64,000 nt of DNA from Saccharofermentanales bacterium (GTDB lineage Bacteria > Bacillota > Clostridia > Saccharofermentanales > UBA5734). The DNA lies in assembly GCA_038326615.1 (NCBI GenBank), contig JBBQKF010000001.1, positions 13,472 to 77,471 on the forward strand, in the 5' to 3' direction. The notes under the pieces were generated by a model. That model worked only from the letters and a program-made list of their open reading frames with translations, was not told the DNA's origin and did no database searches. The position numbers and the translations under genes are program-made. The stretch's first letter is position 1; the number at the start of each line of letters is the position of its first letter. Of the stretch, positions 7,000-58,831 are shown piece after piece.

Positions 7000-7837
7000 T
7001 GCTCTCTAGCCCCTTTATACAAATTCGTTGCAATTCGCACTTCGTACATTTTGGATTTCTAGCAGTGCATATTGCCCTTCCATGAGTTACAATTCTGTGA
7101 CCGAATGCAATCCATTCTTTTTCGGGAAGACAGTCCATTAAATCCTTTTCTATTTTATTGGGATCCATAGAATCTGTAAGTCCAAGATGCCTGGAAATTC
7201 TTCCACAATGAGTGTCTACAACAATTGCATTGATTTTATAGCAATCACCAAGTATAAGGTTGGCAATTTTACGGCCAACTCCAGGCAATGTCAAAAGTGA
7301 ATTCATATCTCTCGGGACATTTCCTCTAAAATTCTCTAATATTTTCGTAAGACTCCCTTTAATTGACTTTGCTTTTACATGATAAAATCCACAGCTTCTG
7401 ATCCGTTCTTCGATTAAATTAACTGGAGCATCCGCAAGTAAATTTATCGATTCGAATTCATTAAAAAGACTCTTACAGACAATATTGACTCTTGCGTCAG
7501 TGCATTGGGCAGCTAAAATGCCTGATATCAATAGTTTCCAGGGTTCACGATAATTTAAAGTACAATCAGCATCTGGGTACATTTCACCAAGTTTATTTAC
7601 TATACTAGTTGCTCTATCTTTTTTTGATATTTCAAGTAATTTTGTTCTAAGTTTCACTAGTCTAGATTCGTCTGATTTATCTGCCATATTTGATGTATTT
7701 GTGTTATGAGATTTGGTTGGTTTGGTTGGTTTGGTTGGTTTGGTTGGTTTTGCTGGTTTTATTAATTTTTCCGGATTAACTAGGCTAGCTTTTTTGATTG
7801 GGTTAGCTGTCTTTGTTGCTTTAATTGGTCCGGTCAT
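6992..7837 (-). CDS. nth: Endonuclease III with a Lys/Pro/Thr-rich N-terminal extension
   Basis: HhH-GPD motif LPGVGRKIANLILGD and a C-terminal 4Fe-4S cluster loop CTARNPKCTKCELQRIC. The ATG at 7837 overlaps the htrA stop in an ATGA junction, which supports the long form. Confidence 0.85.
   Translation of the reverse strand: MTGPIKATKTANPIKKASLVNPEKLIKPAKPTKPTKPTKPTKSHNTNTSNMADKSDESRLVKLRTKLLEISKKDRATSIVNKLGEMYPDADCTLNYREPWKLLISGILAAQCTDARVNIVCKSLFNEFESINLLADAPVNLIEERIRSCGFYHVKAKSIKGSLTKILENFRGNVPRDMNSLLTLPGVGRKIANLILGDCYKINAIVVDTHCGRISRHLGLTDSMDPNKIEKDLMDCLPEKEWIAFGHRIVTHGRAICTARNPKCTKCELQRICIKGLESIE
7712..7756 (-). repeat. In-frame 9-bp tandem repeat (4 copies plus a degenerate one) encoding (KPT)n inside nth
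   Basis: tttggttgg x4 on the plus strand; the protein reads KPAKPTKPTKPTKPTK. Confidence 0.9.
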
Positions 7838-8985
7838 GGGGTTTTCTCCAAAAGAATAACACTTTTCTCGATTTTTTCGTCTGTTAATAGTCTGTAAATT
7901 AAAATTTGAATTTTATCCCCTGGTTTTTTCGTATTAAGAATCCGTCTTAAATCGGCAGTGCTATTCATAACAGTATTGTCGGCTTCAATAATTATATCGC
8001 TTTTTTCTATTCCTGCTAATGATGCGGGTCCTTTTGGATCGACCGAACGAATAAGGATTCCATTTGGAAAGCCATATAATTCCTGCAAACCACTATATTC
8101 ATTTTGTCCATATGCAAGTATCCCTAGCCATGTTCTTCCGTTAACAAATCCACTCTTCTTAAGATCATCTGATATTGTCATTACGATATTTGATGGAATC
8201 GCAAAGTTTATTCCCTCAAATGTGCTTTTTTCAAGTCCAGCATTATTTATTCCGATTACTTCACCCTTTGAGTTAACAAGGGCTCCACCTGAATTCCCTG
8301 GATTTACCGCTGCATCCGTCTGTAGTAGTTGCATTACTGTACCATCATCAAACTCAACTTCACGGTTTATCCCACTTATTATTCCCTGAGAAACTGATCC
8401 CATATATTTTAATCCGCCTGGGCTTCCAATTGCAATAACAAAATCACCAACAACAAGTTTGTCAGAATCTCCAAATATCGCAGGACTTAGACCCTTAGTA
8501 CTTATTTTTAGCAATGCAATATCCGTGATGCTATCAAACCCTATAATTTGTGCTTTAAATGATTTACTATTCTCTTCAACAAATACTTCAATACTTGCTG
8601 CTTTTAATATTTTCCCCTGTTCATCAAGTAAATCTGCAATAACATGCTGATTTGTTACAATATATCCATCAGAAGATATTATAACGCCTGTTGCTTCAGC
8701 GGTTAAACTTTCGAAAGCATTAGATGAAGTATTTGTGGCACGAATCCCTACGATTGAAGGACGAACCTTTTTTGCTATGGGAACAACTATTTCTTCATAT
8801 CCCTTTATCTCAATGACAGTCTTCGTATTTGATGATTCATCCTTTGAATTTGTATTTGAATTAACATTAAAGCCATCCGGTAAAAAAACAAAAATAAAAA
8901 GTCCTGCCGTCAACATTGTTCCAATAACTCCTGCGACCATCCCAACTAATGCTGTTCCAACCCAGCTTCTGTTATGACCTTCCAT
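7834..8985 (-). CDS. htrA: HtrA/DegP-family serine protease with a C-terminal PDZ domain, membrane-anchored
   Basis: TNQHV (His), D..LLK (Asp) and GNSGGAL (Ser) catalytic blocks, an N-terminal TM helix and a PDZ-like C-terminus. Start moved from 8997 to the ATG at 8985, which has GGAGG 5 nt upstream. Confidence 0.9.
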   Translation of the reverse strand: MEGHNRSWVGTALVGMVAGVIGTMLTAGLFIFVFLPDGFNVNSNTNSKDESSNTKTVIEIKGYEEIVVPIAKKVRPSIVGIRATNTSSNAFESLTAEATGVIISSDGYIVTNQHVIADLLDEQGKILKAASIEVFVEENSKSFKAQIIGFDSITDIALLKISTKGLSPAIFGDSDKLVVGDFVIAIGSPGGLKYMGSVSQGIISGINREVEFDDGTVMQLLQTDAAVNPGNSGGALVNSKGEVIGINNAGLEKSTFEGINFAIPSNIVMTISDDLKKSGFVNGRTWLGILAYGQNEYSGLQELYGFPNGILIRSVDPKGPASLAGIEKSDIIIEADNTVMNSTADLRRILNTKKPGDKIQILIYRLLTDEKIEKSVILLEKTP

Positions 8986-9128
8986 AAAGCCCTCCATAAA
9001 AGTAAATTCATTGCTATTACAAAAACCTACGTCAATAAGTATTATTGTTTGCTACTAGTTTTTAATATTAATATCTGTTGTCAATGTAATAATAATAATT
9101 AAAATGCTTTAATAATTTAATCCATATC

Positions 9129-9842
9129 TTATACTATCTCAAATTTATAACCTACGCCCCACACAGTCTTAAGTCTCCAGTTATACCTTGTGCTAATTTC
9201 ATCAAGTTTTTCACGAATGCGTTTAATATGGACATCAACGGTCCTAGATTCCCCATAAAAATCATATCCCCAAACATGTCCAAGTAATTGCTCCCTTGTA
9301 AAAACTCTGTTTGGGTGTGTGGCAAGAAAAAATAGCAATTCTAATTCCTTAGGAGGCATTTCTATCCGATTATTGTCTGCAACAACCACATAGCGGGCTT
9401 TATCAACACGCATCCCCGGGTATTCAATTATTTCATTCTTGGTTCCAAATTCATTTGTTCCGTTTGTCTTATCTTTACAGTTCTCGCATCTTCTAATAAC
9501 TGCGTTGACTCTGGCGAGAAGTTCCTTGGGATCAAATGGTTTTAAAACATAGTCGTCAGCTCCTAATTCAAGTGCAACAACTTTATCAAGTGTGTCACCA
9601 CGGGAAGATAACATTATTATTGGAGTATCACTGATTTTTCTTATCTCACGACACACATCAAAACCATCTTGACCCGATAAGAGTAGTTCTTGAATTACCA
9701 GATCAGGTTTTAACTGCAAAAACATGTCAATTGCTTTATCTCCTAAAAGGCATCCAGAAATTGTAAACTCTTCTTTGTCAAAATAAATTCTTAGCTGCTC
9801 ACATGTATTCTGATCTTCATCAACTACAAGTATTCGTTTCAT
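9129..9842 (-). CDS. OmpR/PhoB-family response regulator, atypical (Glu at the phospho-acceptor position), no adjacent kinase
   Basis: 237 aa with a receiver domain plus winged helix (RTVDVHIKRIREKL...VWGVGYKF). Aligned by eye to OmpR, LMVLDLMLPGEDG corresponds to LVIQELLLSGQDG. Confidence 0.9.
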   Translation of the reverse strand: MKRILVVDEDQNTCEQLRIYFDKEEFTISGCLLGDKAIDMFLQLKPDLVIQELLLSGQDGFDVCREIRKISDTPIIMLSSRGDTLDKVVALELGADDYVLKPFDPKELLARVNAVIRRCENCKDKTNGTNEFGTKNEIIEYPGMRVDKARYVVVADNNRIEMPPKELELLFFLATHPNRVFTREQLLGHVWGYDFYGESRTVDVHIKRIREKLDEISTRYNWRLKTVWGVGYKFEIV

Positions 9843-9900
9843 CAGTACCTCATCCTCCTTTTATAAAAATTTCGTTACCGCTGCAGACAATCTCTCAACT

Positions 9901-12392: not shown

Positions 12393-13217
12393 TTATCTTT
12401 CCGGTATAAATACTTTTTGTGTAGAGGACAAATCAAGTATCCCCTTCCCTTTTCCACCAAGTTTGCCTTGTTTTAATGCAAATCGTAGCCAGACCATTTT
12501 GTCAGCATTTTCATTAGAATTTTTGACTTTTACTATTAGCTCTTCATTTGTTCCCGGAAGTAGCAAAGTCAAGAATAACAATTTATCCTGAATAGGTCTT
12601 ATCGTCTTTATCTCTGGTAATAATTTTACATCAACACGGGTATCTTTGTCAGCATTTATTATATCATTTAATAAAACAATTGACTCGTTTAATGAATCCG
12701 GTAAATCAACCGATGCTTTATGCCCGCATTGTATCTGATTAGCAACAACACCTTCAATTACAGGAATACCTCTTGAATCTGATTTATTAAGTACTTCAAG
12801 GACAATCCCCTCTGAATCAATAATAACACAGCCATCATTAATTGCAACATATGCAACTTCAATCCGTTCATCAATATTCACTTTAATCATAGATGGAAAA
12901 ACGGATTCTATCTCAACATTTCTTATATAAGTCAAGTTTTCTTTTAGTAATTGCTCTGATTTAGCATGTCTCAATTGAAATAATTGCTTTATTGATCCAT
13001 TAACACCATTAAAGAGATGAAATCCAGTCTTTAAGTTTCCAATTGAGATTATCTGACCTCTGGTTACAACCCGACTCCCAGTGATATCGATAGTAGATAC
13101 ATAAAATTGTGGTAGGACAAGAACAAGAATCAAAATTAAAGTTAGAAATCCCCCAAATGCGAAAGTTCCTACGCGGTTCGCTTTTTTCTCCCTTTTTGTC
13201 AATTTATATCTACTCAT
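12393..13217 (-). CDS. ftsQ: Cell division protein FtsQ/DivIB (POTRA domain)
   Basis: 274 aa. A basic N-terminus, a single TM helix, then a POTRA-like region (IDITGSRVVTRGQIISIGNLKTG). Located after murG; its start overlaps the murG stop by 1 nt. Confidence 0.75.
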   Translation of the reverse strand: MSRYKLTKREKKANRVGTFAFGGFLTLILILVLVLPQFYVSTIDITGSRVVTRGQIISIGNLKTGFHLFNGVNGSIKQLFQLRHAKSEQLLKENLTYIRNVEIESVFPSMIKVNIDERIEVAYVAINDGCVIIDSEGIVLEVLNKSDSRGIPVIEGVVANQIQCGHKASVDLPDSLNESIVLLNDIINADKDTRVDVKLLPEIKTIRPIQDKLLFLTLLLPGTNEELIVKVKNSNENADKMVWLRFALKQGKLGGKGKGILDLSSTQKVFIPER

Positions 13218-16945: not shown

Positions 16946-18394
16946 TTATACTTTTTCTTGCATTATTGCTTCTGTGACCTTTTCCATCCCAAATCCCCGC
17001 GAACCTTTTATTAGTATAACATCATCATTGCCTATTTCATTAACCAATTCCGAAATGAGCTCATCTCTTGTTTCAAAATGTTTATAAATAATTGATTTAG
17101 GATTTGATATTGGTTGTGATTGTAAATGTTCATTCTCTTTTATAATCCCAGTTTCTATAGGAATTGTTTGTTCTCCACACGTAAAAACAATATCAATCCC
17201 CTGTAATACACACTCTTCTCCCACTTTTTCATGAGCAAATTCCGAAAATTTGCCTAGCTCAAGCATTCCTCCTAGTGCAGCAATTTTTCTTTTTGTGCCA
17301 GCAATATTAGATAACATCGATATTGCAGCCTTCATGGATTCAAGTCCCGCATTATATGAGTCATCAATAATCGTCATTCCATTATAATGAAGAACTTTTT
17401 GGCGGTTCCCTACATTCTTATAAGACATAAGGCCTTTGATGATGTCATTAAGATTAAGTCCAAGCTCAATGCCAGCACCGATTCCAGTCAAAGCATTTGT
17501 AACATTATGAATTCCAGGAACAGGAATCATTACATTATCAATAATAATGGGTATTCCACTTATTGCTTTTATTTCTACACTAAATATTACGGAGGATTCA
17601 GACAAAATAATATTAAAAGCCTTTATCACAAGATCAGCATTAGCAGGGACAGATTCATCTGTAATCACAAGAGTTGTTCTGATTTTTCCGGTCATTCTTT
17701 CACAATACATAGAAAGATATGGATCATTCCCATTTAGAATTAGCAATCCGCCAGGCTTTAGGCCCTCTGCAATTTCAATTTTTGCATGAAAAATTTCATC
17801 TTGACTTCCTAATCTTTCAATATGAGCAATACCAATATTAGTTATAACAGCAATATCAGGTTGGGCAATCATTGTCAGTTCAAGGATTTCACCCTTACCT
17901 CGCATTCCTAATTCCGTAATACAAACTTCTGTACCAGCAGTAGCTTCAAGTAAAGTCTTTGGCAATCCGATTTCATTGTTAAAATTTTCTTTAGTCTGAT
18001 ATGTATTAATGCTAGATGATATCGCAGCAAAAACCATTTCCCGTGTTGATGTTTTCCCCACACTACCTGTAATTCCAATAACTTTAAAGTCTTCTTCAAT
18101 TCGCTTTGCTTTAGCAATCATTTGGTATGCTTTTAGTGTATCGGAGACCAATATTGCATTGTAATCACCTTCTGTCATTTTCGTGACATCGCTTACACAG
18201 ATTGAATTTGCACCTTTTCCGATAGCAACATTTATATAATCATGTCCATCGAATTTTTTGCCACACAAAGCTATAAAAAGGCAATTTGGAGAGATTTCTC
18301 TAGTATCGGTTGAAACACACGAAATGCTATTTTTTGTAGTTGATTTTCTAATCAACTCTCCATTTACTATTGAAGCAATATTTTTCAAATTCAT
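16946..18394 (-). CDS. murF: UDP-N-acetylmuramoyl-tripeptide--D-alanyl-D-alanine ligase
   Basis: 482 aa. ITGSVGKTSTREM P-loop with Mur ligase middle and C-terminal domains; dcw context. Confidence 0.9.
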   Translation of the reverse strand: MNLKNIASIVNGELIRKSTTKNSISCVSTDTREISPNCLFIALCGKKFDGHDYINVAIGKGANSICVSDVTKMTEGDYNAILVSDTLKAYQMIAKAKRIEEDFKVIGITGSVGKTSTREMVFAAISSSINTYQTKENFNNEIGLPKTLLEATAGTEVCITELGMRGKGEILELTMIAQPDIAVITNIGIAHIERLGSQDEIFHAKIEIAEGLKPGGLLILNGNDPYLSMYCERMTGKIRTTLVITDESVPANADLVIKAFNIILSESSVIFSVEIKAISGIPIIIDNVMIPVPGIHNVTNALTGIGAGIELGLNLNDIIKGLMSYKNVGNRQKVLHYNGMTIIDDSYNAGLESMKAAISMLSNIAGTKRKIAALGGMLELGKFSEFAHEKVGEECVLQGIDIVFTCGEQTIPIETGIIKENEHLQSQPISNPKSIIYKHFETRDELISELVNEIGNDDVILIKGSRGFGMEKVTEAIMQEKV

Positions 18395-20271: not shown

Positions 20272-20418
20272 CAGTTATCAGTTATCAGTTATCAGTTATC
20301 GGTTATCAGTTATCGGTTATCAGTTATCGGTTATCGGTTATCGGTTATCGGTTATCGGTTATCAGTTATCAGTTATCGGTTATCGGTTATCGGTTATCGG
20401 TTATCGGTTATCGGTTAT
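20272..20418. repeat. Heptanucleotide tandem repeat, 21 copies (8 CAGTTAT and 13 CGGTTAT), in the pbp-murE spacer
   Basis: Counted unit by unit: 147 bp is exactly 21 x 7. Confidence 0.97.
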
Positions 20419-25421: not shown

Positions 25422-25578
25422 CCATTTAGATAAATATTCGTGCTTAATAATTTTATAAAAAAGCATTTTAATCAAAATCATTTTGACGAAAATCATTTGG
25501 AATAATGATGTTTTGACAGGAATTATTTGAAGTAAAACATTTATGCAGAATGCACTTAAAACAAATAAAAAGATAATG

Positions 25579-28344: not shown

Positions 28345-28614
28345 TTACTGTACTCGAAACATAATCAATAAAATTACAAAGCCAGGTATAGCAAACAAAA
28401 GGCCCTTAAGTTTAACATCTAGGATTGTTGTATCCCTCTTAAATTTCTTGATTTGTTCCTCATCAAGCATTGCGACTCTTTCAGGGTCAATCACCTTTTT
28501 TTCGTCAAGTTTCTTTTTGTCAACAATTTTGGCAGCCCCGTAAATGATGACGAGTCCTGCAATTGCTAAAATACCGCCTAAAACTTTCAAAATAATTTCT
28601 GCAATCATACTCAT
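28345..28614 (-). CDS. Small two-TM membrane protein of unknown function
   Basis: 89-aa ORF. Hydrophobic helices at both ends flank a charged core. It ends 27 nt before the valS start and has only a weak RBS (aagg). Confidence 0.5.
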   Translation of the reverse strand: MSMIAEIILKVLGGILAIAGLVIIYGAAKIVDKKKLDEKKVIDPERVAMLDEEQIKKFKRDTTILDVKLKGLLFAIPGFVILLIMFRVQ

Positions 28615-29238: not shown

Positions 29239-29306
29239 GGTTAGCAAATTTACTTTTAAGAGCAATTTTACTTATATGAGCAACTCATATTAGAAGGTTA
29301 ACGCAA

Positions 29307-32320: not shown

Positions 32321-32428
32321 TTTGAAATCCTCCCTTTTAATTTTTGCAAAATTTTACTTTTTAATGTGATCAAAGTATTGGTTTTTAATATAATCAAATT
32401 ATTTGTTTCTAAAATTAACAAAGCATCA

Positions 32429-32464
32429 GGCTTTTATGGTTTTTATGGTTTTATTGGTTTTTAT
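32429..32464. repeat. 9-bp tandem repeat x4 (GGYTTTTAT) upstream of rhaA
   Basis: ggcttttat ggtttttat ggttttatt ggtttttat. Confidence 0.85.
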
Positions 32465-32645
32465 GTATATTAAAATCTCAGATAACGAGTTAACAATAAC
32501 GAGCAACAGATTTGACTATGATATGGAATGTATAATGATTTATACCTTATTATGATTGAACAAGTAAATTATTTCAAGCAATTTTAAAAAAATATTATTT
32601 CTTTATCTAAAATTATTATAAGATCCCTATGAAATTCTTATGATG

Positions 32646-32724
32646 TTCTTATAAATTTCCTATAATAATCTTATAACAATTTTTTAAAGTTCATATAATA
32701 TTCTTACAAATTTCCTATAATAAT
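32646..32724. repeat. 24-bp direct repeat at 55-bp spacing, within an array of TTCTTATAA-like motifs
   Basis: ttcttataaatttcctataataat (32646-32669) and ttcttacaaatttcctataataat (32701-32724), 23 of 24 identical. Related ttcttat(g/a)a motifs begin at 32635 and 32744. Confidence 0.85.
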
Positions 32725-32757
32725 ATTTGGAAATCATATAAATTTCTTATAAAATTA

Positions 32758-34053
32758 TTATGAAAATCTCATCTTTGCATAATCTTTAAAAAACGCAATT
32801 CTCTTGTATAACGAAGGCATCTTTGACACTGTTTTGTCAGAGAACATCCCTTCTGAAAGATCAATAGTTGCACTCCATTCATGGCCAATAAGCGCCCATG
32901 CGGCATCAATAAGGTTTGCAAACTCAGGTTTACGCATTGCTTCACAGACGAATTTCTGTCGTGGTTGATTTATATCTTCACCACTTATTTGGAAAAACCC
33001 GTTCTTGTCACAATTAGCACGAAGTCTTTCGAGTTGTGCAGGTGTATTTCTAGAAGGCATATATGTTATTGAATTAAAGCCAGTCTCACGAATTGTATTA
33101 AACACATCATCAAGGAATTCATCTTCGAATTTTTGTGCTTTCTTATCGCCGGTAACTGATTCTGTAACATCTCCAAGGTATGCATATGCAAGAATTATTC
33201 CGTGTTTTTTTGTAAATGCTGCAACCTCGGCTATTGGAAGTGCTTCTTTTGTGGCAGGAATATAAAATTGTTCAACCATATTTCCTTTTAAAATATTTAA
33301 AAGGTCGTATTCATAAATTTCATTTGATTTGTCAAGAAGAAGCTCTCTGGTTTTACCTTTTACTGAGATATTAAGAGATTTCTCCATGAAATCAAGAAGT
33401 TTTTCACCTCTGCCAAACTGGGTTGTGAGTTTTTTTGCAACAGCATAAAGGAGATGCCTTTCGGTAACACTTCCTCCTTCATGAGCCATTGATAGGGGGA
33501 GAACGTCTAAATCATAATCAACTTCGATTCTTGCGGGCAAAAGAATTTTATTAATTTCAACTATCATTTCGCGATTTCTAATGCCACGGGCAACACAGAT
33601 AGGTGCAAAAAATTCTTTTAATGCAGGAATTGCTGTATGCGGAATTCCGTGCATTGCAACATATGCAACTGTATCCTGATCAGGATTGTTAATCCTTCGT
33701 CCATCAAGAATTGTTCCTGCAAATGTTGCCCTTACTTCAGCTCCGATAGTCGTAGGCATTCCCATTATAAGTCCTGCCTTAATAAATTCCTCGGCACCAC
33801 TAATTGAATCATGGTCCATAATCCCAGTTGTCAAAAGCCCTGTTTCCCATGAACGGTATACTGCTTTTGCCGGTGAATATGGTGAAAACGAGTAGATTGA
33901 ATGAATATGGCTGTTAACGTCATTTTGTCTTATTGGCGCAGAGATAAAACCTTTATCTACTGCATCTTTTAGCTTATTTAACGCAAGAAGCCTGTCATCC
34001 ATATTTGGTGCATTTAATTCTGATATTAGGATGTCGATTTCATTTTGTTCCAT
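32758..34053 (-). CDS. PHP-domain metal-dependent phosphoesterase
   Basis: 431 aa. N-terminal HxH (NSHIHSIYS) followed by GIMDHDSISG, typical of PHP-fold phosphoesterases. Good RBS (AAAGGAG). Confidence 0.7.
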   Translation of the reverse strand: MEQNEIDILISELNAPNMDDRLLALNKLKDAVDKGFISAPIRQNDVNSHIHSIYSFSPYSPAKAVYRSWETGLLTTGIMDHDSISGAEEFIKAGLIMGMPTTIGAEVRATFAGTILDGRRINNPDQDTVAYVAMHGIPHTAIPALKEFFAPICVARGIRNREMIVEINKILLPARIEVDYDLDVLPLSMAHEGGSVTERHLLYAVAKKLTTQFGRGEKLLDFMEKSLNISVKGKTRELLLDKSNEIYEYDLLNILKGNMVEQFYIPATKEALPIAEVAAFTKKHGIILAYAYLGDVTESVTGDKKAQKFEDEFLDDVFNTIRETGFNSITYMPSRNTPAQLERLRANCDKNGFFQISGEDINQPRQKFVCEAMRKPEFANLIDAAWALIGHEWSATIDLSEGMFSDKTVSKMPSLYKRIAFFKDYAKMRFS

Positions 34054-34247: not shown

Positions 34248-36725
34248 TTAGACGCCGAGTTTAGCACGTCTCATAAGTTCCACATCATTGAAACTACGAG
34301 TAGGTGTATATCCTGCGATAGGCATAATGCGCTCGTGAATTATGTCGATGAACCAATCTTCTTGTGGGAAGAAGTGTTCTTCAAGCTCAAAAGCAGGTGT
34401 AATCCAGTTACGTGAACCAAGAACAACTGCAGGCGCATCAAGATCGTCAAAGCAAAGGTCGTTAATATTTCTTGCAAGGTCATTTAAGTATGAACCACGG
34501 TCACATGCATCACTTGAAAGAAGAATTTTTCCTGTCTTTTTAACAGACTCAACAACTTTTTCGAAATTAAATGGAACCATTGAACGTGCATCAATAACTT
34601 CAGCACTGATTCCGTATTTTTCTTCAAGTGTTTTTGCAGCGTCAAGGGCACGATAAAGTGTTGCACCAATTGTTAGAATTGTAATGTCTTTACCTGCTCT
34701 TTTGATATCTGGTTCACCAATAGGAATTTCATAGCTTTCAACAGGTACGCCACCAGTGTGGAATTGTTCTGCGATATCATATAATCTTTGGCTTTCAAAG
34801 AATATAACAGGGTCAGATCCGTTAAGAGCAGTTGTCATAAGACCCTTCGCATCGTAAGGTGTTACAGGGAAAACAACTTTTATTCCAGGAATTTGTGTAA
34901 CAAGAGATGTCCAATCCTGTGAGTGCTGTGCGCCATATTTAGACCCAACAGAAACACGTAGTACTACAGGCATTTTGAGAATTCCTGCTGACATTGCCTG
35001 CCATTTTGGAAGCTGGTTGAAAACTTCATCTCCAGCACGGCCTAAGAAGTCACAGTACATAAGCTCGACAAGTGCACGTCCTCCGCACATTGCATATCCG
35101 ACTGCAGATCCAACGATAGCAGCTTCTGCAATTGGTGAGTTAAATAAACGGTGGTAAGGAATTGCTTCTGTTAATCCACGATAAACAGCGAAAGCGCCGC
35201 CCCAGTCACGATTTTCTTCGCCATAAGCAATCAATGTTGGATCTTCGTAGAATTTGTCGATTATTGCTTCAAAAACAGCATCTCTGTACTGATAAACTTT
35301 GTTTTTAGAAACTGCTTTACCATTTGCATCAAATGCAAAACGCTCTTTTTTTGCGATTGCAAGTACACGAGGATTTTCTTCTTTTGGCATAAGAACATCT
35401 GGCTTACGGTCTTCCATTTTTGCAATTTTCTGATTTGAAAACATTATTTTCTCAATAGCATCAGGTGTTTTGAAAAGATCCATACGAGGTGAAATGACAG
35501 GGTCTGAAGCCATCTGAACAGCATTTGTAACAGTCTGAATAATCATATCGTCGATTGCTGCAAAATCACTGTCTTTTGCAACACCAGCTGCAATTAATTT
35601 GAGTCTGAAATCAACAATTGAATCCTGAGCCATCCATGCGTCTTTTTCTTCTGTTGTACGATATGAATCAGCATCAGAAGGTGAATGTCCTGAATAACGA
35701 TAAGTTAGAGTATCAAGAAGCACAGGACCATTTTTGTTCTTAAGAATATCAATTTTTCTTGTCATTGCTTCGATCACGGCAAGAGGGTTATATCCATCAA
35801 TTCTCTCAGAATGCATCTGTTCTTTGTTAACACCAGCACCGATTCTTGCAAGGAAATCATATCCCATTGTTTCTCCGCGTGTTTGTCCGCCCATAGCGTA
35901 CTGATTGTCCATAACATTAAGAAGTAATGGTAATCCGCCCTTCATATCGCCTTCCCAAAGAGTTTTGTACTGATCCATAACTGACATCATGATTCCTTCC
36001 CAAACAGGACCGCATGCCATAGAACCATCACCTATATTACAAATAACAATTCCCTTTTTGCGATTAACTTTTTTGAAAAGAGCAGCACCTACAGAAATAT
36101 CAGCAGATCCACCAACGATTGCGTTGTTAGGATAAATTCCGAAAGGAAGGAAAAATGCATGCATTGATCCGCCAAGACCCTTATGGAATCCTGTTTCTTT
36201 TGCAAATATTTCAGCTAAAGCACCGTATATAAGGAAATCAATTGCAATTTCTTTAACTGTTTTGCTCTTACCCTCATGGAAATTTAATACTGCACGGTAT
36301 GCATCTCCACCAAGGAATTCTTCCATAATTGACACTAACTCAGCGTCAGAAAGCTTATGAATGGATGAAAGCCCTTTTGCAAGAATTTCACCATGACTTC
36401 TGTGAGAACCGAAAATATAGTCATCAGTTGTTAGCAAATATGCTTGTCCAACTGAAGATGCTTCCTGTCCCATTGAAAGATGTGCTGGACCTGGATTATT
36501 ATAATCAATACCATTATAAGCATTAGTTGTTTTGATTGTGTAAAGCATTGTTTCGAACTCACGGATAAAACGCATGTCGCGGTAGATTCTCATAAAATCT
36601 TCTTTTGAGTAATTTGCCTTTTCCTGTTCGATTGTCTTTTCGTACTGGTTTACAGGGATTTTGTTAAATTCAATAAACCCTGGTTTCCTCATTTCTGTAG
36701 GATCAATGTGCAAAATTTTAGTCAT
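34248..36725 (-). CDS. TPP-dependent dehydrogenase E1 component, fused alpha and beta subunits
   Basis: About 825 aa. The N-terminal half has the E1-alpha pattern (GPAHLSMGQEASSVG, and the TPP motif GDGSMACG...NVMDNQYAMG). The C-terminal half is E1-beta/transketolase-like (PIAEAAIVGSAVGYAMCGGRALVELMYCDF). Start set at the ATG at 36725, with GGAGG 8 nt upstream. Confidence 0.85.
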   Translation of the reverse strand: MTKILHIDPTEMRKPGFIEFNKIPVNQYEKTIEQEKANYSKEDFMRIYRDMRFIREFETMLYTIKTTNAYNGIDYNNPGPAHLSMGQEASSVGQAYLLTTDDYIFGSHRSHGEILAKGLSSIHKLSDAELVSIMEEFLGGDAYRAVLNFHEGKSKTVKEIAIDFLIYGALAEIFAKETGFHKGLGGSMHAFFLPFGIYPNNAIVGGSADISVGAALFKKVNRKKGIVICNIGDGSMACGPVWEGIMMSVMDQYKTLWEGDMKGGLPLLLNVMDNQYAMGGQTRGETMGYDFLARIGAGVNKEQMHSERIDGYNPLAVIEAMTRKIDILKNKNGPVLLDTLTYRYSGHSPSDADSYRTTEEKDAWMAQDSIVDFRLKLIAAGVAKDSDFAAIDDMIIQTVTNAVQMASDPVISPRMDLFKTPDAIEKIMFSNQKIAKMEDRKPDVLMPKEENPRVLAIAKKERFAFDANGKAVSKNKVYQYRDAVFEAIIDKFYEDPTLIAYGEENRDWGGAFAVYRGLTEAIPYHRLFNSPIAEAAIVGSAVGYAMCGGRALVELMYCDFLGRAGDEVFNQLPKWQAMSAGILKMPVVLRVSVGSKYGAQHSQDWTSLVTQIPGIKVVFPVTPYDAKGLMTTALNGSDPVIFFESQRLYDIAEQFHTGGVPVESYEIPIGEPDIKRAGKDITILTIGATLYRALDAAKTLEEKYGISAEVIDARSMVPFNFEKVVESVKKTGKILLSSDACDRGSYLNDLARNINDLCFDDLDAPAVVLGSRNWITPAFELEEHFFPQEDWFIDIIHERIMPIAGYTPTRSFNDVELMRRAKLGV

Positions 36726-36769: not shown

Positions 36770-36862
36770 TTTTACTATTTTTTATTTCTCAATTTAATAC
36801 TTTTACTATTTTTTATTTCTCAATTTAATACTTTTACTTTTTTTATTTCTTAATTTAATAAC
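36770..36862. repeat. 31-bp tandem repeat x3 in the E3-E1 spacer
   Basis: ttttactattttttatttctcaatttaatac occurs twice exactly (36770-36800 and 36801-36831), followed by a diverged third copy. Confidence 0.9.
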
Positions 36863-36870
36863 TTTTTTAT

Positions 36871-36905
36871 ATTGTTTTCTTGTATTGTTTTCTTGTATTG
36901 TTATT
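36871..36905. repeat. 13-bp tandem repeat x2.7 (attgttttcttgt)
   Basis: Two exact copies (36871-36883 and 36884-36896) plus a partial third. Confidence 0.9.
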
Positions 36906-41529: not shown

Positions 41530-41687
41530 TTTTCCCTCCATAATTTAGCCATCCCAAAACCTGAATTTATTCAGATTCCTAATCTATTTGAAATTAATTT
41601 CAATCAATTATTTACCAATCAACTATTTGCCATTCAATTTGGAATTGAATCATTGAAAATGTTATTTAATTTAATAGTTTGTGGCTT

Positions 41688-41900
41688 GTACTAATGCGTT
41701 GTACTAGTGCGTTGTACTAGTGCGTTGTCTAGTGCGTTGTACTAGTGCGTTGTACTAGTGCGTTGTACTAGTGCGTTGTACTAGTGCGTTGTACTAGTGC
41801 GTTGTCTAGTGCGTTGTTCTAGTGCGTTGTACTAGTGCGTTGTTCTAGTGCGTTGTACTAGTGCGTTGTTCTAGTGCGTTGTACTAGTGCGTTGTACTAG
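41688..41900. repeat. 13-bp tandem repeat, 16 full copies plus a partial one (GTACTAGTGCGTT and variants)
   Basis: Counted unit by unit. Variants are gtctagtgcgtt (12 bp, twice), gttctagtgcgtt (three times) and gtactaatgcgtt (once). The final partial unit gtactag contains the TAG stop (41897-41899) of the upstream dehydrogenase gene. Confidence 0.97.
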
Positions 41901-44157: not shown

Positions 44158-44193
44158 AATACCCCTCCTTTGAATATTATTTATACCTTATTT

Positions 44194-44271
44194 AAACGTT
44201 ATATAAATGTTCTTTTAATGTTCTTTTAATGTTGTTTAAGCGTTATTTAAATGTTATATTAATGTTTGAAA
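44194..44271. repeat. 11-bp-phased array of about 7 AA(T/C)GTT units upstream of the DeoR gene
   Basis: aaacgttatat aaatgttctttt... with aatgttctttt exact twice (44206-44216 and 44217-44227), then aatgttgttta, agcgttattta, aatgttatatt, aatgtttgaaa. Confidence 0.8.
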
Positions 44272-44438
44272 CTAACATTCTTTTGTTACTAATTAACATT
44301 AATACTATTTTATCACATTTCTTTGTTACTTTGCAACATGCTAATTGTAAATATTTGGTTATGTTTTTAAATATTTTTATGATATATTAGTAAATAATAG
44401 ATACACAAATTTATAATCTGATATAATGCTAAGTAGTT

Positions 44439-44502
44439 AGTATTAAGCATTTTAAAGATAAGTTTTAGTATTAAGTATTTAAGATAGTTTTAATATTAAG
44501 TT
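44439..44502. repeat. Tandem repeat of about 26 bp, x2.4 (agtattaagYattt(ta)aagata(a)gtttt)
   Basis: Copies at 44439-44466 and 44467-44491, plus a partial one at 44492-44502. Located 40-100 bp upstream of the hydrolase gene. Confidence 0.8.
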
Positions 44503-44541
44503 ATAATAGACTATTATAAAATTAGCAGGAGGTTTTGATTA

Positions 44542-45285: not shown

Positions 45286-45443
45286 AATTAATTTACAATT
45301 TGAAAAGTGTCATTTTCATTTCTTAAGTCATGATGTAAATTAATAAATAAGGCTCATGTCAAGCAGTACCGTCAAATTTTGATTCTTTCATGAGACGGAA
45401 TAAATATAAAAATCTAGATAAATAAATTTATAAATGTATATAT

Positions 45444-45473
45444 TGATAGATAGATAGATAGATAGATAGATAG
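45444..45473. repeat. (GATA)7 tetranucleotide repeat 33 bp upstream of the GNAT gene
   Basis: gatagatagatagatagatagatagataga, counted directly. Confidence 0.97.
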
Positions 45474-45505
45474 AATGATTAAATGAAGAGGCTGATGTAT
45501 ATAAT

Positions 45506-49451: not shown

Positions 49452-50099
49452 ATGTCATTTCATACGAAAAACATGGCAAAATTTAAAACCAACTCTAAAT
49501 TATCAATATATTCGATGGCAGTTTGCGCCTTATTTACAGCATTAATTGCTGTTGGTGCATTTATCAAGATCCCATTTCCTAATGTACCATTGACTTTGCA
49601 GACATTGTTCGTTGTGCTCGCAGGGCTTTTGCTAGGAACCAGAAACGCATCAATTTCAGTAGGTCTCTACCTTTTTCTAGGACTTGCTGGCCTTCCTATA
49701 TTTACCAAAGGTGGTGGCATTGGTTATATCTTTCAACCAACTTTTGGATATCTCATTGGATTTCTTGTCGCTACAGCAATAGTTGGTGCGCTTTCAAAAA
49801 AGGTTAAAACTTCAACTTCAACTTCAACTTCAACTTCAACTTCAACTTCAGTTTCCGCGATTTCACTTTATTTTCTAATCAGCTTTGCTGGAATAATTAC
49901 GATTTATCTGTTTGGAATGATTTATATGTATTTTATAATGAATTATTATGTTGGAAAGCCACTTGCATTCTTAAGTATGTTTACTTATACCTTTATTTTC
50001 ATGATCGCTGGAGATGTTTTCAAATGTATAGTTGCAGCTCTTCTTGCACAAAGGCTTATTCCAATATTGAATAGATCGTCAAAATTTAGAGAGGTGTAA
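49452..50099 (+). CDS. bioY: Biotin transporter S component BioY
   Basis: 215 aa. FIKIPFPNVPLTLQTLFVVLAGLLLG and FQPTFGYLIGF blocks. The start could instead be the ATG 7 codons downstream. Confidence 0.9.
   Translation: MSFHTKNMAKFKTNSKLSIYSMAVCALFTALIAVGAFIKIPFPNVPLTLQTLFVVLAGLLLGTRNASISVGLYLFLGLAGLPIFTKGGGIGYIFQPTFGYLIGFLVATAIVGALSKKVKTSTSTSTSTSTSTSVSAISLYFLISFAGIITIYLFGMIYMYFIMNYYVGKPLAFLSMFTYTFIFMIAGDVFKCIVAALLAQRLIPILNRSSKFREV
49809..49850 (+). repeat. In-frame hexanucleotide repeat (ACTTCA)7 encoding (TS)7 inside bioY
   Basis: Counted directly; the protein reads KKVKTSTSTSTSTSTSTSVS. Confidence 0.97.
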
Positions 50100-50989: not shown

Positions 50990-51204
50990 TAAATTTACCC
51001 TCTATCATAAAAATTATTCATCGATGTATTATAACAAATATTGACAAAATTGCAAAAATATTTTATAGTGTTTCTAAATGGTACTACTATTTAGAATTTA
51101 ACTTATTTGATTGATGAAATATATATTCACACTGAAATGGAGTTTTGAAGATAGTTTTGCTGTAAAATACATATATTGCTATTATTATTTTGGTGTCACT
51201 GTTT

Positions 51205-51436
51205 TTGATGATGTTATTGTTGTTGTTGATGTTATTATTGCTGCTGTTACTATTGTTGTTACTATTATTATTGTTATTATTAAGGTTACTGTTGTTATTA
51301 TTGCTGCTGTTATTATTGTTACTATTATTGTTATTGTTATTATTATTAAGGTTACTGTTGTTATTATTGCTGCTGGTATTATTGTTGTTACTATTATTGT
51401 TATTGTTATTATTATTAATGTTACTGTTGTTTTGCA
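51205..51436. repeat. Triplet-biased (ATT/GTT/GCT) low-complexity tract of about 230 bp with a 66-bp higher-order repeat
   Basis: taaggttactgttgttattattgctgctg occurs at 51281-51309 and 51347-51375, and degenerate copies flank these. Four of the six frames are open across the tract (poly-N/S, poly-L, V/I/T-rich). Confidence 0.9.
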
Positions 51437-51467
51437 ATTCACGAAACTGCATTCAGTAAGAAAGGAT

Positions 51468-52184
51468 ATGATGAACCCGATTGATGCACTAACAGAATTT
51501 GGACTAACCAGACAGGAAGGCTCGATTTATATGATTTTGTATGCTCATGTTGAGCTTACAGGCTATGAAATAGCAAAGCTTGCTGGTATTTCCCGCTCAA
51601 ATGTTTATTCTTCTCTTGCAAACCTTGTTGAAAAGGGCGGTGTGTATCTGATTGAAGGTTCGTCGAATAAATATTCGGCAGTTCCTGTTGATGAATTCTG
51701 TGATAACAAGGTAAGGAAACTTGAGCAAAACAAATTGCACCTTACTAAATTATTAGCATCAAAGCCTGATGATCAGGAAGGATATATAACAATACGTGGC
51801 GAACAACATATAGAAGATAAAATGATTCATATGCTTAAACAAACAACCCAAAGGGTTTATATATCTGTTTCAAGAAAAATCCTCAACCTTGTCGAGCCAT
51901 ATCTCTCCGACTTGATTTGTAAAAATTGTAAAGTTGTTATAATAACTAATACTCCATACGAGCTTACTGGTGCAACAATTTTCAACACGCCAAAAGAAAG
52001 CAATCAAATAAGAGTTATTGTTGATTCAAAAACCGTATTAACAGGGGACCTCGAAAATGGAAACCAGTCGACATGCCTTTTTTCACGAAAATCAAATCTG
52101 GTTGATCTTTTAAAAGAATCAATGCAAAATGAAATTAAACTAATCGAATTAACCAAATCAAAAGTTATTGAACAGAAACAATAA
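51468..52184 (+). CDS. TrmB-family HTH transcriptional regulator
   Basis: LTEFGLTRQEGSIYMILYAHVELTGYEIAKLAGISRSNVYSSLANLVEKG winged-helix region. Start set at ATGATG 51468, after GAAAGGA; the track ORF extends back through the repeat tract to 51111. Confidence 0.7.
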   Translation: MMNPIDALTEFGLTRQEGSIYMILYAHVELTGYEIAKLAGISRSNVYSSLANLVEKGGVYLIEGSSNKYSAVPVDEFCDNKVRKLEQNKLHLTKLLASKPDDQEGYITIRGEQHIEDKMIHMLKQTTQRVYISVSRKILNLVEPYLSDLICKNCKVVIITNTPYELTGATIFNTPKESNQIRVIVDSKTVLTGDLENGNQSTCLFSRKSNLVDLLKESMQNEIKLIELTKSKVIEQKQ

Positions 52185-52373
52185 AATAAAAATATCACTA
52201 TAATCAGAGCTAAATATATTGAAGTAAAAGAACAAGAACTATTAAGAATTAGGTTAAGGATATAAATAATAATTGACAAAAAAGAATGAGAATTATTATG
52301 AATACTAATAATTCTAGAGACAAAAGAAAAGAGTCAGAAAATTGATTAGTTCTTAGGATAAATTGAATAATGA

Positions 52374-52412
52374 AAAAATAGATACTAAAAATAGATACTA
52401 AAAATAGATACT
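52374..52412. repeat. 13-bp tandem repeat x3 (aaaaatagatact) upstream of the lysA-like gene
   Basis: Three exact copies, counted directly; they end 50 bp before the ATG at 52463. Confidence 0.95.
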
Positions 52413-52462
52413 GAAAAAAGAAACACAAAATTTATCACTAAAGTCAGAAAGCGAGAAATCAT

Positions 52463-55062: not shown

Positions 55063-55533
55063 CTATTCTTCAGGGGCAACAATTTCTTCACTAGTTTCTT
55101 TAACTATTGTAACCGTGGCTTTTTTTACCTTAGCATTTTTTACTTCATCTGGTTTTTCGTCTTTAATGTCAGATGACTTTTCTTTGGTTTTTGACAATAA
55201 TTTCTCTTTTTGTTCCTTGATAGCCTCAATTGTTTCTTCTGCCTTTGCTTTGATCACTTCTGTTGCTTTCTCAGCCTTTTCCTTAACAATTTCGGTTGCC
55301 TTCTCTGCCTTATCCTTGATGTCTTTCCTTGTCTCTTTGCCTGGTTTAGGTGCAAAAAGCAGTCCTGCAGCTGCTCCAATGGCAACACCAGCAGCTATTC
55401 CGGCAGCTAAATTGGCTCCAGATTTTCTTTGTGCTGCTTTCTTTGCGCGATGGGTTGTAATAACTGGCAAAATATCCACAAGCTTCTTCTCGGCCTTTTT
55501 CAAATTTTTCTTTTGTTGTCTTAATCCTGTCAT
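55063..55533 (-). CDS. YtxH-family general stress protein
   Basis: GAAAGLLFAPKPGKETRKDIKDKAEKATE signature followed by Lys/Glu-rich repeats. Confidence 0.75.
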   Translation of the reverse strand: MTGLRQQKKNLKKAEKKLVDILPVITTHRAKKAAQRKSGANLAAGIAAGVAIGAAAGLLFAPKPGKETRKDIKDKAEKATEIVKEKAEKATEVIKAKAEETIEAIKEQKEKLLSKTKEKSSDIKDEKPDEVKNAKVKKATVTIVKETSEEIVAPEE

Positions 55534-55672
55534 GAAAATTCCTCCTTTTGAAACCTATAAAGTTAGTGCTTAATCTACAATGTCTATTATACCACTTTTA
55601 CAATAAATAAACTACTAAGATGATTTATTCGAAATTAATTTATAATAAAATATTTTCATGTGTTTGTCTCGT

Positions 55673-56392: not shown

Positions 56393-56439
56393 TTAATAAT
56401 TTGTATGATTTGGAATTTCCAAAACCATACTCCCCCCTT

Positions 56440-56931: not shown

Positions 56932-57086
56932 GTTTTCCTCCAGATTCATATATCTAATAGTGTTTATGAATTTATGGGGCAATATATTTCGCAAATATAG
57001 CTGCAATTCAATATTATTCGAACTGAATAATAAGGATTATACCAAAAGGCGGCAAAAATTGCCAAAGATAATGGTTTTACACATCT

Positions 57087-57956
57087 TTATACATTTCCAA
57101 TATAGACATATTTTAAGTATTTTTTTGCAATTAACGCAAGACTGTTTAGAGTCTCTATTGGTGTGGATTCCATGTCAGACCATTTGTATTGCGGGAAAAA
57201 TCGAGTCAGATGCAGTGGTATATCTGGGGATACATAAGCGATAAATTTAGCCATTTCTTCAATTTCTTCATAGCTGTCGTTTTTACCAGGAATTACTAAT
57301 GTCGAAATTTCTACATGGCATTTTTTTTTGCTTATACATATTGTTTCCTTAACTTCATCGAGACCCCCTGCCAGGACTTTTCTATAAAACTCATGCGAAA
57401 ACGACTTAAGATCGATGTTCATTGCATCTATAAACGGAAGGAGCTCGTGAAGAGGTTTTTTGTTAATATATCCATTTGTTACAAGTACATTCATTAGTCC
57501 TGCTTTTTTTGCAAGCCTGGCAGTATCTATTACATATTCATACCAGATTAAGGGTTCATTATAAGTGTATGCTATGCCAATATTTCCTTCTGGCATTAAA
57601 TCTATTGCTTTCCTGACAAGATTATCACTCCTGACAAAATTTGTTCTTACTTTTTCAAATGGCTCTTTTGAAATATTATGATTCTGACAAAAAGGGCACG
57701 CTAAATTGCAACCTGCAGAACCCACAGATAAAATCATACTTCCAGGATGAAAATGTTTTAATGGCTTTTTTTCGATAGGGTCTAAAGCCAATGAAGATAT
57801 TTCGCCATATGATGAAGCTATAAGAACTCCATTGTGATTTATTCTAACTCCACACAACCCACTTTCTCCAGAATTAATTCTGCAATTATGTGGGCACAAA
57901 TCACACTTAACAGTTTTCGAATCCGATATAGGAAGGTAAAACTCTGCTTCTTTCAT
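57087..57956 (-). CDS. AmmeMemoRadiSam-system radical SAM enzyme
   Basis: 289 aa. An N-terminal extra Cys cluster (CDLCPHNCRI..G..G.CGVR), CNLACPFCQN (CxxxCxxC), and adjacency to an AMMECR1 gene. Confidence 0.85.
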   Translation of the reverse strand: MKEAEFYLPISDSKTVKCDLCPHNCRINSGESGLCGVRINHNGVLIASSYGEISSLALDPIEKKPLKHFHPGSMILSVGSAGCNLACPFCQNHNISKEPFEKVRTNFVRSDNLVRKAIDLMPEGNIGIAYTYNEPLIWYEYVIDTARLAKKAGLMNVLVTNGYINKKPLHELLPFIDAMNIDLKSFSHEFYRKVLAGGLDEVKETICISKKKCHVEISTLVIPGKNDSYEEIEEMAKFIAYVSPDIPLHLTRFFPQYKWSDMESTPIETLNSLALIAKKYLKYVYIGNV

Positions 57957-57974
57957 AATTAGAATATCTCCTTT

Positions 57975-58538
57975 TTAGTGGTATCTTATAACTTCAAATC
58001 TTTCCATCTCATAAGACTCATTAGGAGAAATCCCAGCCTTACATAAAGCTATTTCAACTTGCTCTTCAGGAGAATTAACACCTTCTAAGTCAGGAAGCAA
58101 AAGCCCTCTTCTGTAACCCTTGCTAACAATCACACCATATTTTTTAATATCAAGTTCACCCATTACATGGATTCTTTCAGGTGACATTAATACATCCACT
58201 GAATATACAAGGTAATCAAGATCAGCAGCAATAACGGCCTCAAATCTAGGGTCACGGGTACCAGATTGGATTGCATTAAAAATTATTTCTTCAGCAACAT
58301 TTCTTTGTGTAGGTGCGATTGTTCCAATGCATCCTCTTAGCTGTCCACCCTCCTTTATTGAGACAAATGTACCAGCCTGATAATCAGATAATTTGAATGG
58401 GACCCATTCTGGTATAGTAATTCGTCTTCTTTCTCTTACATAAACTTCAAGAGCTTCGCGTGCAAGTGAAACATAATCACTTTCTGATTCTCTGATATTC
58501 TCAATAAAATTTTTGTCATGATAAGAAAATGTTTTCAT
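57975..58538 (-). CDS. AMMECR1-domain protein (AmmeMemoRadiSam protein A)
   Basis: GAFVSIKEGGQLRGCIGT...DPRF...LLP pattern (here GTFVSIKEGGQLRGCIGTI, RDPRFEAV, RRGLLLPD). Start set at the ATG at 58538, after AAGGAG. Confidence 0.85.
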   Translation of the reverse strand: MKTFSYHDKNFIENIRESESDYVSLAREALEVYVRERRRITIPEWVPFKLSDYQAGTFVSIKEGGQLRGCIGTIAPTQRNVAEEIIFNAIQSGTRDPRFEAVIAADLDYLVYSVDVLMSPERIHVMGELDIKKYGVIVSKGYRRGLLLPDLEGVNSPEEQVEIALCKAGISPNESYEMERFEVIRYH

Positions 58539-58792
58539 GAAAGTACACTCCTTCTTTATTCTTAACCTTAAGGCCAATTTTGTTATTAGTTTTCAAATTT
58601 AAAAATTCTCTTTATATTTTTATTATAACTAGTGTTTTGTTCTAAATTTTATAAAACAGGACGACCTATTTTTCGTAATATTTCGCTGTCCTCATCAATA
58701 TGTTTATTTACAATTTTTGAAAATCGCCAGAAACTTTTAGATGAATACTTAAACGCACCTCACAAGGGCACTTTTTCAAGGCACATCATAAT

Positions 58793-58831
58793 GTCACTTC
58801 GTAAAGTCACTTCGTAAAGTCACTTCATAAT
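58793..58831. repeat. 13-bp tandem repeat x3 (gtcacttcgtaaa) overlapping the 3' end of the LigB-like gene
   Basis: Two exact copies (58793-58805 and 58806-58818). The third, diverged copy gtcacttcataat (58819-58831) contains the TGA stop and the last codons (IMK) of the CDS. Confidence 0.95.

Follow-up and report, generated by a model that had tools for sequence, protein, structure and literature searches.

Why does a single stretch of clostridial DNA hold so many short tandem repeats, and what are they? The stretch is 64 kb of contig JBBQKF010000001.1 from a Saccharofermentanales bacterium (assembly GCA_038326615.1), hereafter the window, for which an initial annotation had listed 15 repeats and proposed a window-wide excess, perhaps from a lineage-specific mutational process. 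Tandem Repeats Finder (TRF) recovered all 15 items, at the same positions or a few bases off. The excess they form is real and moderately strong, and it is limited to a narrow clade. We consider it probable that the arrays are micro- and minisatellites, each specific to its locus and of the variable-number tandem repeat (VNTR) kind, made by slippage and quickly turned over, in a clade which generates or tolerates them.

With a TRF score of at least 50 as the main cut-off and overlapping calls merged, the window contains 20 arrays covering 1,732 bp, i.e., 0.31 arrays per kb. The 40 dinucleotide shuffles gave a mean of 0.7 arrays and a maximum of 4, and the proposed excess over composition-matched sequence therefore stands. 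At a looser cut-off (score of at least 30), 47 arrays were called in the window against 20.5 in the shuffles. Density is uneven: the left end has 3 arrays in 22.5 kb, whereas the part around 30-52 kb has 13 in the same length. A curated gene map places 16 of the 20 arrays in non-coding DNA. Arrays account for about 15% of the non-coding DNA of the window, and 12 of the 26 spacers of at least 100 bp hold one or more. Per non-coding kb the window has 1.81 arrays compared to 0.37 in 88 pooled reference loci, a roughly fivefold difference, whereas the density per coding kb (0.07 versus 0.05) is at background level. The excess is absent from coding DNA; whatever raises the birth of arrays, selection still removes them where they matter.

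The unit lengths point the same way. Coding arrays have units of 6, 9 and 33 bp, all multiples of three, while the non-coding units measure 4, 7, 9, 11, 13, 15, 18, 22, 24, 25, 29 and 31 bp and are not a multiple of three in 12 of 16 arrays. Every array with a 4-, 7-, 11-, 13-, 22-, 25-, 29- or 31-bp unit is non-coding, and none of the window arrays lies out of frame within coding DNA. Such a difference is the mark that selection leaves on genuine slippage products. The two largest arrays have 20.7 copies of a 7-bp unit and 16.7 copies of a 13-bp unit. Placement mostly in intra-operon spacers, as first described, holds in so far as 13 of the 16 non-coding arrays separate co-directional genes, and no terminators were found in these array-bearing spacers. 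The description is too narrow for several arrays that sit in probable promoter or leader DNA (the regions upstream of rhaA and of mraZ and the divergent region of a deoR-family gene); divergent regions hold 3 of the 16. Promoter and terminator scans over 42 kb gave site counts at shuffle level, and none of the sites explains the arrays.

The window comes from a metagenome-assembled contig, and short reads cannot size arrays exceeding the read length, so the arrays might be suspected of being assembly artefacts. Independent data were available as three contigs of the Logan assembly of run SRR19962012 (L081, L089 and L362), two of which aligned to the window over 14.8 kb with 3 mismatches (99.95-99.99% identity). 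Four of the six ends of these contigs fall inside arrays with the same units (the 7-mer, the 13-mer, GATA and AACTTC). A k-mer assembler breaks at true repeats. The contig ends therefore show that the arrays exist and are not artefacts, the copy numbers being those of one assembly. In addition, unit lengths obey the reading frame in coding DNA only. The artefact explanation is thus largely refuted for the existence of the arrays and may apply to copy numbers only; as an account of the arrays as such, we regard it as extremely improbable. Going by the same ends, the arrays are among the main reasons why the short-read assembly of this organism is fragmented, and the practical lesson is that such arrays fragment short-read assemblies.

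Whether the excess belongs to the lineage was addressed with a reference set of 79 loci (1.35 Mb). They come from other species and each include a homologue of the window's fused E1 alpha-beta gene. Relatedness was ranked by MurE identity, since E1 is not a proxy for it (65-89% identity across genomes of 30-68% guanine plus cytosine (GC), labelled Clostridia and Bacteroidales). The reference loci hold 89 arrays, or 0.066 per kb, and those below 0.40 GC hold 25 arrays in 270 kb, or 0.093 per kb; the window thus also exceeds related low-GC DNA (0.31 versus 0.093), with a Poisson P of about 1e-7 to 1e-8 against the references. The closest relatives (MurE 72-76%, E1 89%) are represented by five loci covering two genomic regions in four samples, from GCA_964549475.1, one European Nucleotide Archive (ENA) assembly and two Logan assemblies. 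They contain 21 arrays in 81 kb, i.e., 0.26 per kb, compared to 2 arrays in 43 kb (0.05 per kb) in relatives at 67% MurE identity. Among the relatives, GCA_054607175.1 and GCA_054607295.1 are repeat-poor. The excess is accordingly a feature of a narrow lineage, high in close relatives, low in the next (0.05) and in the wider group (0.066).

The window is at the top of a continuous density distribution and not outside it, which allows the view that there is no lineage effect: densities would vary between loci in the ordinary way, and the window would lie in the upper tail for an AT-rich genome whose spacers are rather long. Densities of 0.27 arrays per kb over 22 kb are found in two reference loci (L022 and L031), the left third of the window has only 0.13 per kb, and the non-coding fraction is 14% in the window against a reference mean of 7.5%. 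However, the window still has about five times the pooled reference density when counted per non-coding kb, the five closest-relative loci, from two regions and four samples, are also high while the next relatives are low, and the Poisson P is about 1e-7. We therefore hold this explanation to be highly unlikely.

While the density is shared among close relatives, the arrays are not. Those of the relatives sit in other spacers, and their units are unrelated to those of the window. The spacer between the penicillin-binding protein (PBP) gene and murE is 266 bp long with a heptamer array in the window, and 174 bp in L083, with 2.5 copies of a 17-mer beginning at the PBP stop; in L082, L084, L085, L086 and L088 it measures 18-58 bp and has no array. 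In the operon resembling that of pyruvate dehydrogenase (PDH), the window has arrays between the genes for an alcohol dehydrogenase (ADH)-like protein and a short-chain dehydrogenase/reductase (SDR) and between lpd and E1, and both spacers are array-free in L001. That relative has arrays after the gene upstream of E2 and between E2 and lpd, where the window has none. A shared density in different spacers and with different units indicates a clade-wide propensity, with the arrays themselves young and turning over. Selection for tunable spacing, one of the causes proposed earlier, is not supported: among relatives the PBP-murE spacer can be as short as 18 bp or as long as 266 bp, whether or not it holds an array.

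How the arrays arise can be read from their units. No unit recurs elsewhere in the window, in the 362 fetched loci or in viral contigs, and the window arrays have only AT-rich 9-mers in common. The claim that two arrays begin within a stop codon was correct: the TAG of the ADH-like gene (41899-41897) and the TGA of a LigB-family gene (58822-58820) each lie in the first unit of the array that follows. Relatives L083, L001 and L028 also have arrays beginning at a stop codon. As the first unit contains the stop of the upstream gene, the unit was derived from the sequence at the locus and did not arrive by insertion. Variant units lie scattered among the others and build up blocks of higher order; examples are the 77-bp order in the long 13-mer array and the TAACCGA/TAACTGA variants of the heptamer array. 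Private units, stop-codon overlap and variant blocks together fit local tandem duplication followed by slippage or unequal exchange.

Slippage and near-neutrality are what we infer from these observations. Each array would be born by tandem duplication of local sequence, grow by replication slippage or unequal exchange, and persist only in spacers between genes, where it is harmless. Compared to neighbouring lineages, the organism of the window and its closest relatives would produce or tolerate arrays of this kind several times more often, and turnover would be so fast that the same operons in related genomes differ both in the spacers that hold arrays and in the arrays themselves. Three other kinds of repeat were considered and rejected. 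A dispersed or mobile repeat family does not have units private to their loci, and a family of the type of mycobacterial interspersed repetitive units (MIRUs) is set aside in the same way, as each unit occurs at its own locus only and the shared sequence amounts to AT-rich 9-mers. Clustered regularly interspaced short palindromic repeats (CRISPR) are excluded as the copies are contiguous and have no spacers.

A recurrent 13-bp period had also been put forward as meaningful. It is found in four or five window arrays with mutually unrelated units. Judged by the period spectrum of 45 reference non-coding arrays, among which 13 bp is unremarkable, at least 4 of 16 arrays with this period have an uncorrected P of ~0.02, which is not significant because about 20 periods are possible. 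None of the 21 arrays of the close relatives has a period of 13. We treat the recurrence as a coincidence.

The arrays could instead be selected cis-acting spacers in polycistronic mRNAs, providing a clean end of translation and ribosome standby, with copy number tuning the downstream gene. Their sense strands would suit such a role. Fold energies are 0 kcal/mol over 145 nt for the 7-mer array, -0.02 over 133 nt for the 31-mer array and -0.1 for the 13-mer array at 52373. In the six cleanest arrays, ATG, GTG and TTG are absent or nearly absent from the sense strand, and in five of the six each of the three frames has a stop. The distance from the end of an array to a start codon is about 30-45 nt in several cases. 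TAACTGA repeats have been proposed to act in translation initiation in Beggiatoaceae (PMC4679880), heptamer repeats affect reporter expression in Nostoc (bioRxiv 10.1101/2022.06.06.494920), and about 15 of 120 listed metagenomic TAACCGA arrays abut an ATG within 6 nt. However, non-array spacer DNA is also A-rich on the sense strand (0.41 versus 0.46 in arrays), and dinucleotide shuffles fold equally poorly. Neither position nor sequence of the arrays is conserved in close relatives, whose orthologous spacers vary from 18 to 266 bp, and the downstream genes keep canonical Shine-Dalgarno sites. The case for such spacers is built on sequence. Array composition is compatible with neutral filler and with a ribosome standby or insulator region alike, without discriminating between them. 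Overall, we find a selected spacer function unlikely, although it is the strongest of the alternatives. Stable RNA structure, including units like repetitive extragenic palindromes or bacterial interspersed mosaic elements (REP/BIME) and terminator stem-loops, was ruled out by sense-strand fold z-scores of -1.6 to +1.5, except for the array at 58750-58830 (z = -2.9).

The heptamer array upstream of murE deserves separate discussion. On the murE sense strand it has 22 units, of which 13 are TAACCGA, 7 TAACTGA, one TAACTGC and one TAATTGA, with the TAACTGA units in exact runs of two and three; TAACCGA and TAACTGA differ by one CpG-to-TpG change. The array starts 27 nt past the PBP stop and ends 95 nt before the murE ATG, which is preceded by a GGAGG ribosome-binding site. 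Direct repeats of TAACTGA have been described in Beggiatoaceae, Thiocystis, Cyanobacteria and five Bacteroidetes only (MacGregor 2015, PMC4679880). They are intergenic, face the downstream gene and occur together with related heptamers. Where Gramella and Aequorivita have long arrays, close relatives have a short spacer (PMC4679880). The window array is similar in having two or more tandem TAACTGA units split by related heptamers, in its intergenic position and forward orientation towards murE, and in that the close relatives have a short PBP-murE spacer without a heptamer array. It differs in its host phylum, Bacillota, in its majority unit, TAACCGA, and in being the only heptamer set in 64 kb; no heptamer set was found in 88 loci of related Clostridia and Bacteroidales. 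In Beggiatoaceae, the repeats end a few nt from the start codon, usually without a Shine-Dalgarno site (PMC4679880), whereas the window array stops 95 nt from an ATG with a normal one. The result extends the TAACTGA class to Bacillota and suggests that it is much more widespread than described in 2015.

Beyond the window, (TAACCGA)4 occurs in at least 120 JGI metagenome contigs (L090-L209) with a flanking GC of 0.29 to 0.69. Among the matches listed, these arrays are often beside other heptamer arrays, and about 15 of 120 end 6 nt or less from an ATG, without a Shine-Dalgarno site. In stretches of IMG/VR viral contigs (L210-L361), (TAACTGA)3 was found in 107 and (TAACCGA)3 in 12, while triple arrays of five composition-matched control heptamers were found in 2, 8, 7, 3 and 13. 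(TAACTGA)3 is thus 8-50 times commoner in viral contigs than composition-matched heptamers. TAACTGA is a specially favoured heptamer and TAACCGA is not clearly so in these contigs, a lead which lies outside our main verdict on the window.

Several points weigh against slippage-made, nearly neutral VNTR-like arrays in a permissive clade. The best reference loci attain 0.27 arrays per kb over 22 kb. The references are mostly short-read metagenome-assembled genomes, which break or collapse at repeats, and the baseline may therefore be underestimated. Variability in copy number is the defining property of VNTRs, and the present arrays are known from the sequence of one strain. The largest arrays are A-rich, lack start codons, have stops in all frames and are almost structureless on the sense strand, which could reflect selection. 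Finally, the recurrence of TAACTGA across phyla, above composition-matched heptamers, is hard to obtain from neutral slippage alone.

A more specific proposal is that a heritable change in a small Saccharofermentanales-type clade raised the birth or survival of non-coding tandem duplications, and that some arrays were then recruited as leaders. The change could be the loss of a repeat-stabilising repair or exonuclease function. The recruited arrays would be unstructured intercistronic leaders with stops in every frame, TAACYGA being a solution favoured across phyla. The spread of (TAACCGA)4 over at least 120 contigs with a flanking GC of 0.29-0.69 and the 8-50-fold frequency of viral (TAACTGA)3 over controls are in line with this proposal. 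We nevertheless regard it as quite unlikely in this full form.

Some arrays might be protein-binding sites, i.e., operators or iterons, and two are candidates. In the TAATGTT array beside the deoR-family gene (44169-44266), the 11-bp spacing turns all motifs to the same side of the helix, and the site is a divergent promoter region that adjoins a regulator gene. In the long 13-mer array (41686-41900), every unit has the 6-bp palindrome ACTAGT inside a 10-nt quasi-palindrome. The latter array, however, separates two co-directional genes rather than lying at a promoter, and its unit occurs at this locus only. Because unit sequences differ at every locus, binding sites would explain two or three arrays at most and not the window-wide excess. 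We regard this explanation as very unlikely. The array at 44169-44266 may be an operator array or phased DNA. A degenerate 11-bp-periodic stretch (32608-32767) precedes a promoter-like site for rhaA and probably represents phased or curved DNA rather than a young array. Both 11-bp-periodic arrays lie upstream of promoter-like sites and are better read as phased AT-rich DNA or operator arrays than as slippage products.

Set against known systems, the window arrays belong to a known kind, ordinary locus-specific tandem arrays in spacers, and are not a new system. They resemble bacterial VNTRs and long simple sequence repeats (SSRs) in their head-to-tail, high-identity copies, more numerous than composition predicts (20 versus 0.7), and in being mostly intergenic, with multiple-of-three units tolerated in genes. 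They differ in that many units (13-31 bp) are above 11 bp, in that the host is an uncultured member of Clostridia, and in that copy numbers are known from one strain's sequence, so that polymorphism is not part of the likeness. MIRU-VNTR loci are similar in that arrays lie between operon genes and in some cases include the upstream gene's stop codon. MIRUs form a dispersed family whose related units of 40-100 bp carry small reading frames coupled to neighbouring genes, whereas the window units measure 4-31 bp and are unrelated between loci. Contingency loci share short perfect arrays, e.g., (GATA)7.5, close upstream of a gene start. However, no window array breaks a reading frame, and the neighbours are housekeeping or metabolic genes and not surface or restriction genes.

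The literature leaves room for such lineages. A 2025 census puts the average frequency of short tandem repeats in prokaryotes close to that in shuffled sequence, with exceptions in particular lineages (PMC12699852), and enrichment of 5-11 nt repeats is sporadic among lineages (Mrazek et al., 2007, as summarised in PMC4679880). Within the scope of that summary, the window shares the sporadic lineage distribution, the prominence of heptamers and slippage as the accepted origin. Ca. Epulopiscium viviparus, also a member of Clostridia, has scattered, mostly intergenic blocks of 18- or 21-bp direct repeats with no units shared between blocks (PMC10756260). The window is alike in its scattered intergenic blocks with block-specific units. 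It differs in that the units of Ca. E. viviparus are typically 18 or 21 bp and its blocks large and imperfect, and in that the authors link them to giant polyploid cells (PMC10756260), while the window host is known from DNA alone. A literature search by order name found no description of a repeat-rich genome for the group of the window host. If the propensity of the clade is true genome-wide, it would offer a natural comparison for the control of tandem-repeat birth and loss in bacteria, as repeat-rich genomes could be compared with repeat-poor sister genomes, and the arrays would be usable as strain markers in digester and gut metagenomes.

Table 1. Tandem arrays and periodic stretches of the 64-kb window, by position.
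Feature	Position	Strand	Setting
29-bp x2.1 array, 9-bp sub-period	2945..3006	-	371-bp spacer between co-directional genes
9-bp x5.3 array (TTTGGTTGG)	7712..7759	-	in frame, (KPT)n in N-terminal extension of HhH-GPD glycosylase
Heptamer array x20.7	20274..20418	-	PBP-to-murE spacer
15-bp x2.7 array	25459..25498	-	valS-to-mraZ spacer, 709 bp
18-bp x2.3 array	29243..29283	-	692-bp spacer upstream of Ppnp-family gene
24-bp x2.8 array	32347..32423	-	leader just upstream of rhaA
9-bp x3.8 array (sense ACCATAAAA)	32432..32465	-	same rhaA-upstream spacer as 24-bp array
Degenerate 11-bp-periodic AT-rich stretch, x14.5, 63% matches, 55-bp higher order	32608..32767	.	
31-bp x3.1 array, 95% matches	36770..36866	-	ends ~45 nt before fused E1 start codon
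13-bp x2.5 perfect array	36870..36902	-	adjoins 31-bp array
15-bp x2.6 array	41601..41639	-	ADH-like-to-SDR spacer
13-bp x16.7 array (sense CTAGTACAACGCA), 77-bp higher order	41686..41900	-	ADH-like-to-SDR spacer
11/22-bp-periodic array x7, TAATGTT once per helical turn	44169..44266	.	divergent region beside deoR-family gene
25-bp x2.4 array, 13-bp sub-period	44437..44508	.	deoR divergent region, ends 34 nt before hydrolase start
22-bp x2.0 array	45399..45442	+	hydrolase-to-GNAT spacer
(GATA)7.5 perfect array	45445..45474	+	ends 31 nt before GNAT gene ATG
(AACTTC)7.2 perfect array	49808..49850	+	in frame, codes (TS)7 in BioY
66-bp x3.1 array, 3-periodic, T-rich, open on both strands	51200..51431	+	
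13-bp x3.7 array (AAAAATAGATACT)	52373..52431	+	ends 31 nt before decarboxylase gene start
33-bp x2.4 array, 76% matches	55233..55311	-	in frame, inside YtxH-family gene
13-bp x4.1 (26-bp x3.1) array	58750..58830	-	overlaps stop of LigB-family gene

A minority of the items first listed are other things, namely phased AT-rich promoter DNA, in-frame low-complexity coding repeats and a protein domain duplication. The two 24-bp copies at 32646 are 55 bp apart and not head to tail, inside the 11-bp-periodic stretch. The pair of 372-bp copies lies in the E2 acyltransferase gene and encodes its two lipoyl domains, with 73-93% identity between them; as an ordinary domain duplication, it falls outside the phenomenon. 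The 9-bp array at 7712, listed with four copies, has 5.3. It lies in the gene for a HhH-GPD base-excision glycosylase (6992-7837, minus strand), whose N-terminal extension of ~44 amino acids is rich in K/P/T and includes (KPT)n; the orthologue in GCA_964549475.1 has 237 amino acids and no such extension. The sense RNA of the 31-bp array before the fused E1 gene is A-rich and unstructured.

The (GATA)7.5 array is flanked by the hexamers TTGATA and TAGAAT 22 nt apart (45443-45476), and the promoter scan called no site there. With one unit fewer, the two hexamers would have an 18-nt promoter spacing, and the array could be a candidate copy-number-dependent promoter upstream of the GNAT gene. The 66-bp array has a strong promoter-like site upstream of it (51041-51069) and, downstream, the probable start of a TrmB-like regulator gene (51469). 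Within 51087-51468, the repeat reads as Val/Ile-rich sequence in frame with the TrmB-like gene on the plus strand and as a 121-aa Asn/Ser-rich frame on the minus strand. Arrays of another character were seen in L058 (Saccharofermentanales, JBMNJV010000001.1), where one 92-bp unit forms two arrays ~4.5 kb apart (12611-12861, x2.7, and 17293-17783, x5.3; 88-93% matches) and is thus dispersed, unlike the units of the window.

The GC content is 32-37% across the window, and the minus strand holds nearly all genes. Judged by gene content, the host is a member of Clostridia, and together with its closest relatives it belongs to uncultured Saccharofermentanales-type Clostridia of the gut and digester type. 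A protein 100% identical to its MurE is present in the Logan assembly of SRR19962012. In the protein collection, MurE is alone in its 90% cluster, and its next relative stands at 76% identity; the named relatives are metagenome-assembled genomes labelled Saccharofermentanales or 'Oscillospiraceae'. The cell-division cluster includes mraZ, rsmH, the PASTA-bearing PBP, murE, murF, mraY, ftsW, murG and ftsZ. Also present are valS, recG, rhaA and bioY, and an operon with the ADH-like gene, the SDR gene, E2 with two lipoyl domains, lpd and the fused E1 gene, which the deoR-family regulator adjoins. Scans for tRNA genes and against Rfam found no known RNA genes in the window.

The fused E1 alpha-beta gene of a 2-oxoacid dehydrogenase (34248-36725, minus strand, about 825 amino acids) has at least 592 relatives with 65-89% identity, in genomes of 30-68% GC labelled Clostridia and Bacteroidales, and some of the bins are labelled Accumulibacter or Propionivibrio. 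This distribution suggests wide horizontal spread or mis-binning. At 2686-2922 on the minus strand, a small 78-aa gene matches the PC4/p15 single-stranded-DNA-binding fold family (PF02229, E = 1.7e-12). Directly upstream of valS is a conserved gene of ~89 amino acids without a Pfam match (28345-28614, minus strand); Rfam detected no T-box leader. The gene has the same position in three relatives (L082 1935-2201, L085 1730-1996 and L088 1606-1875).

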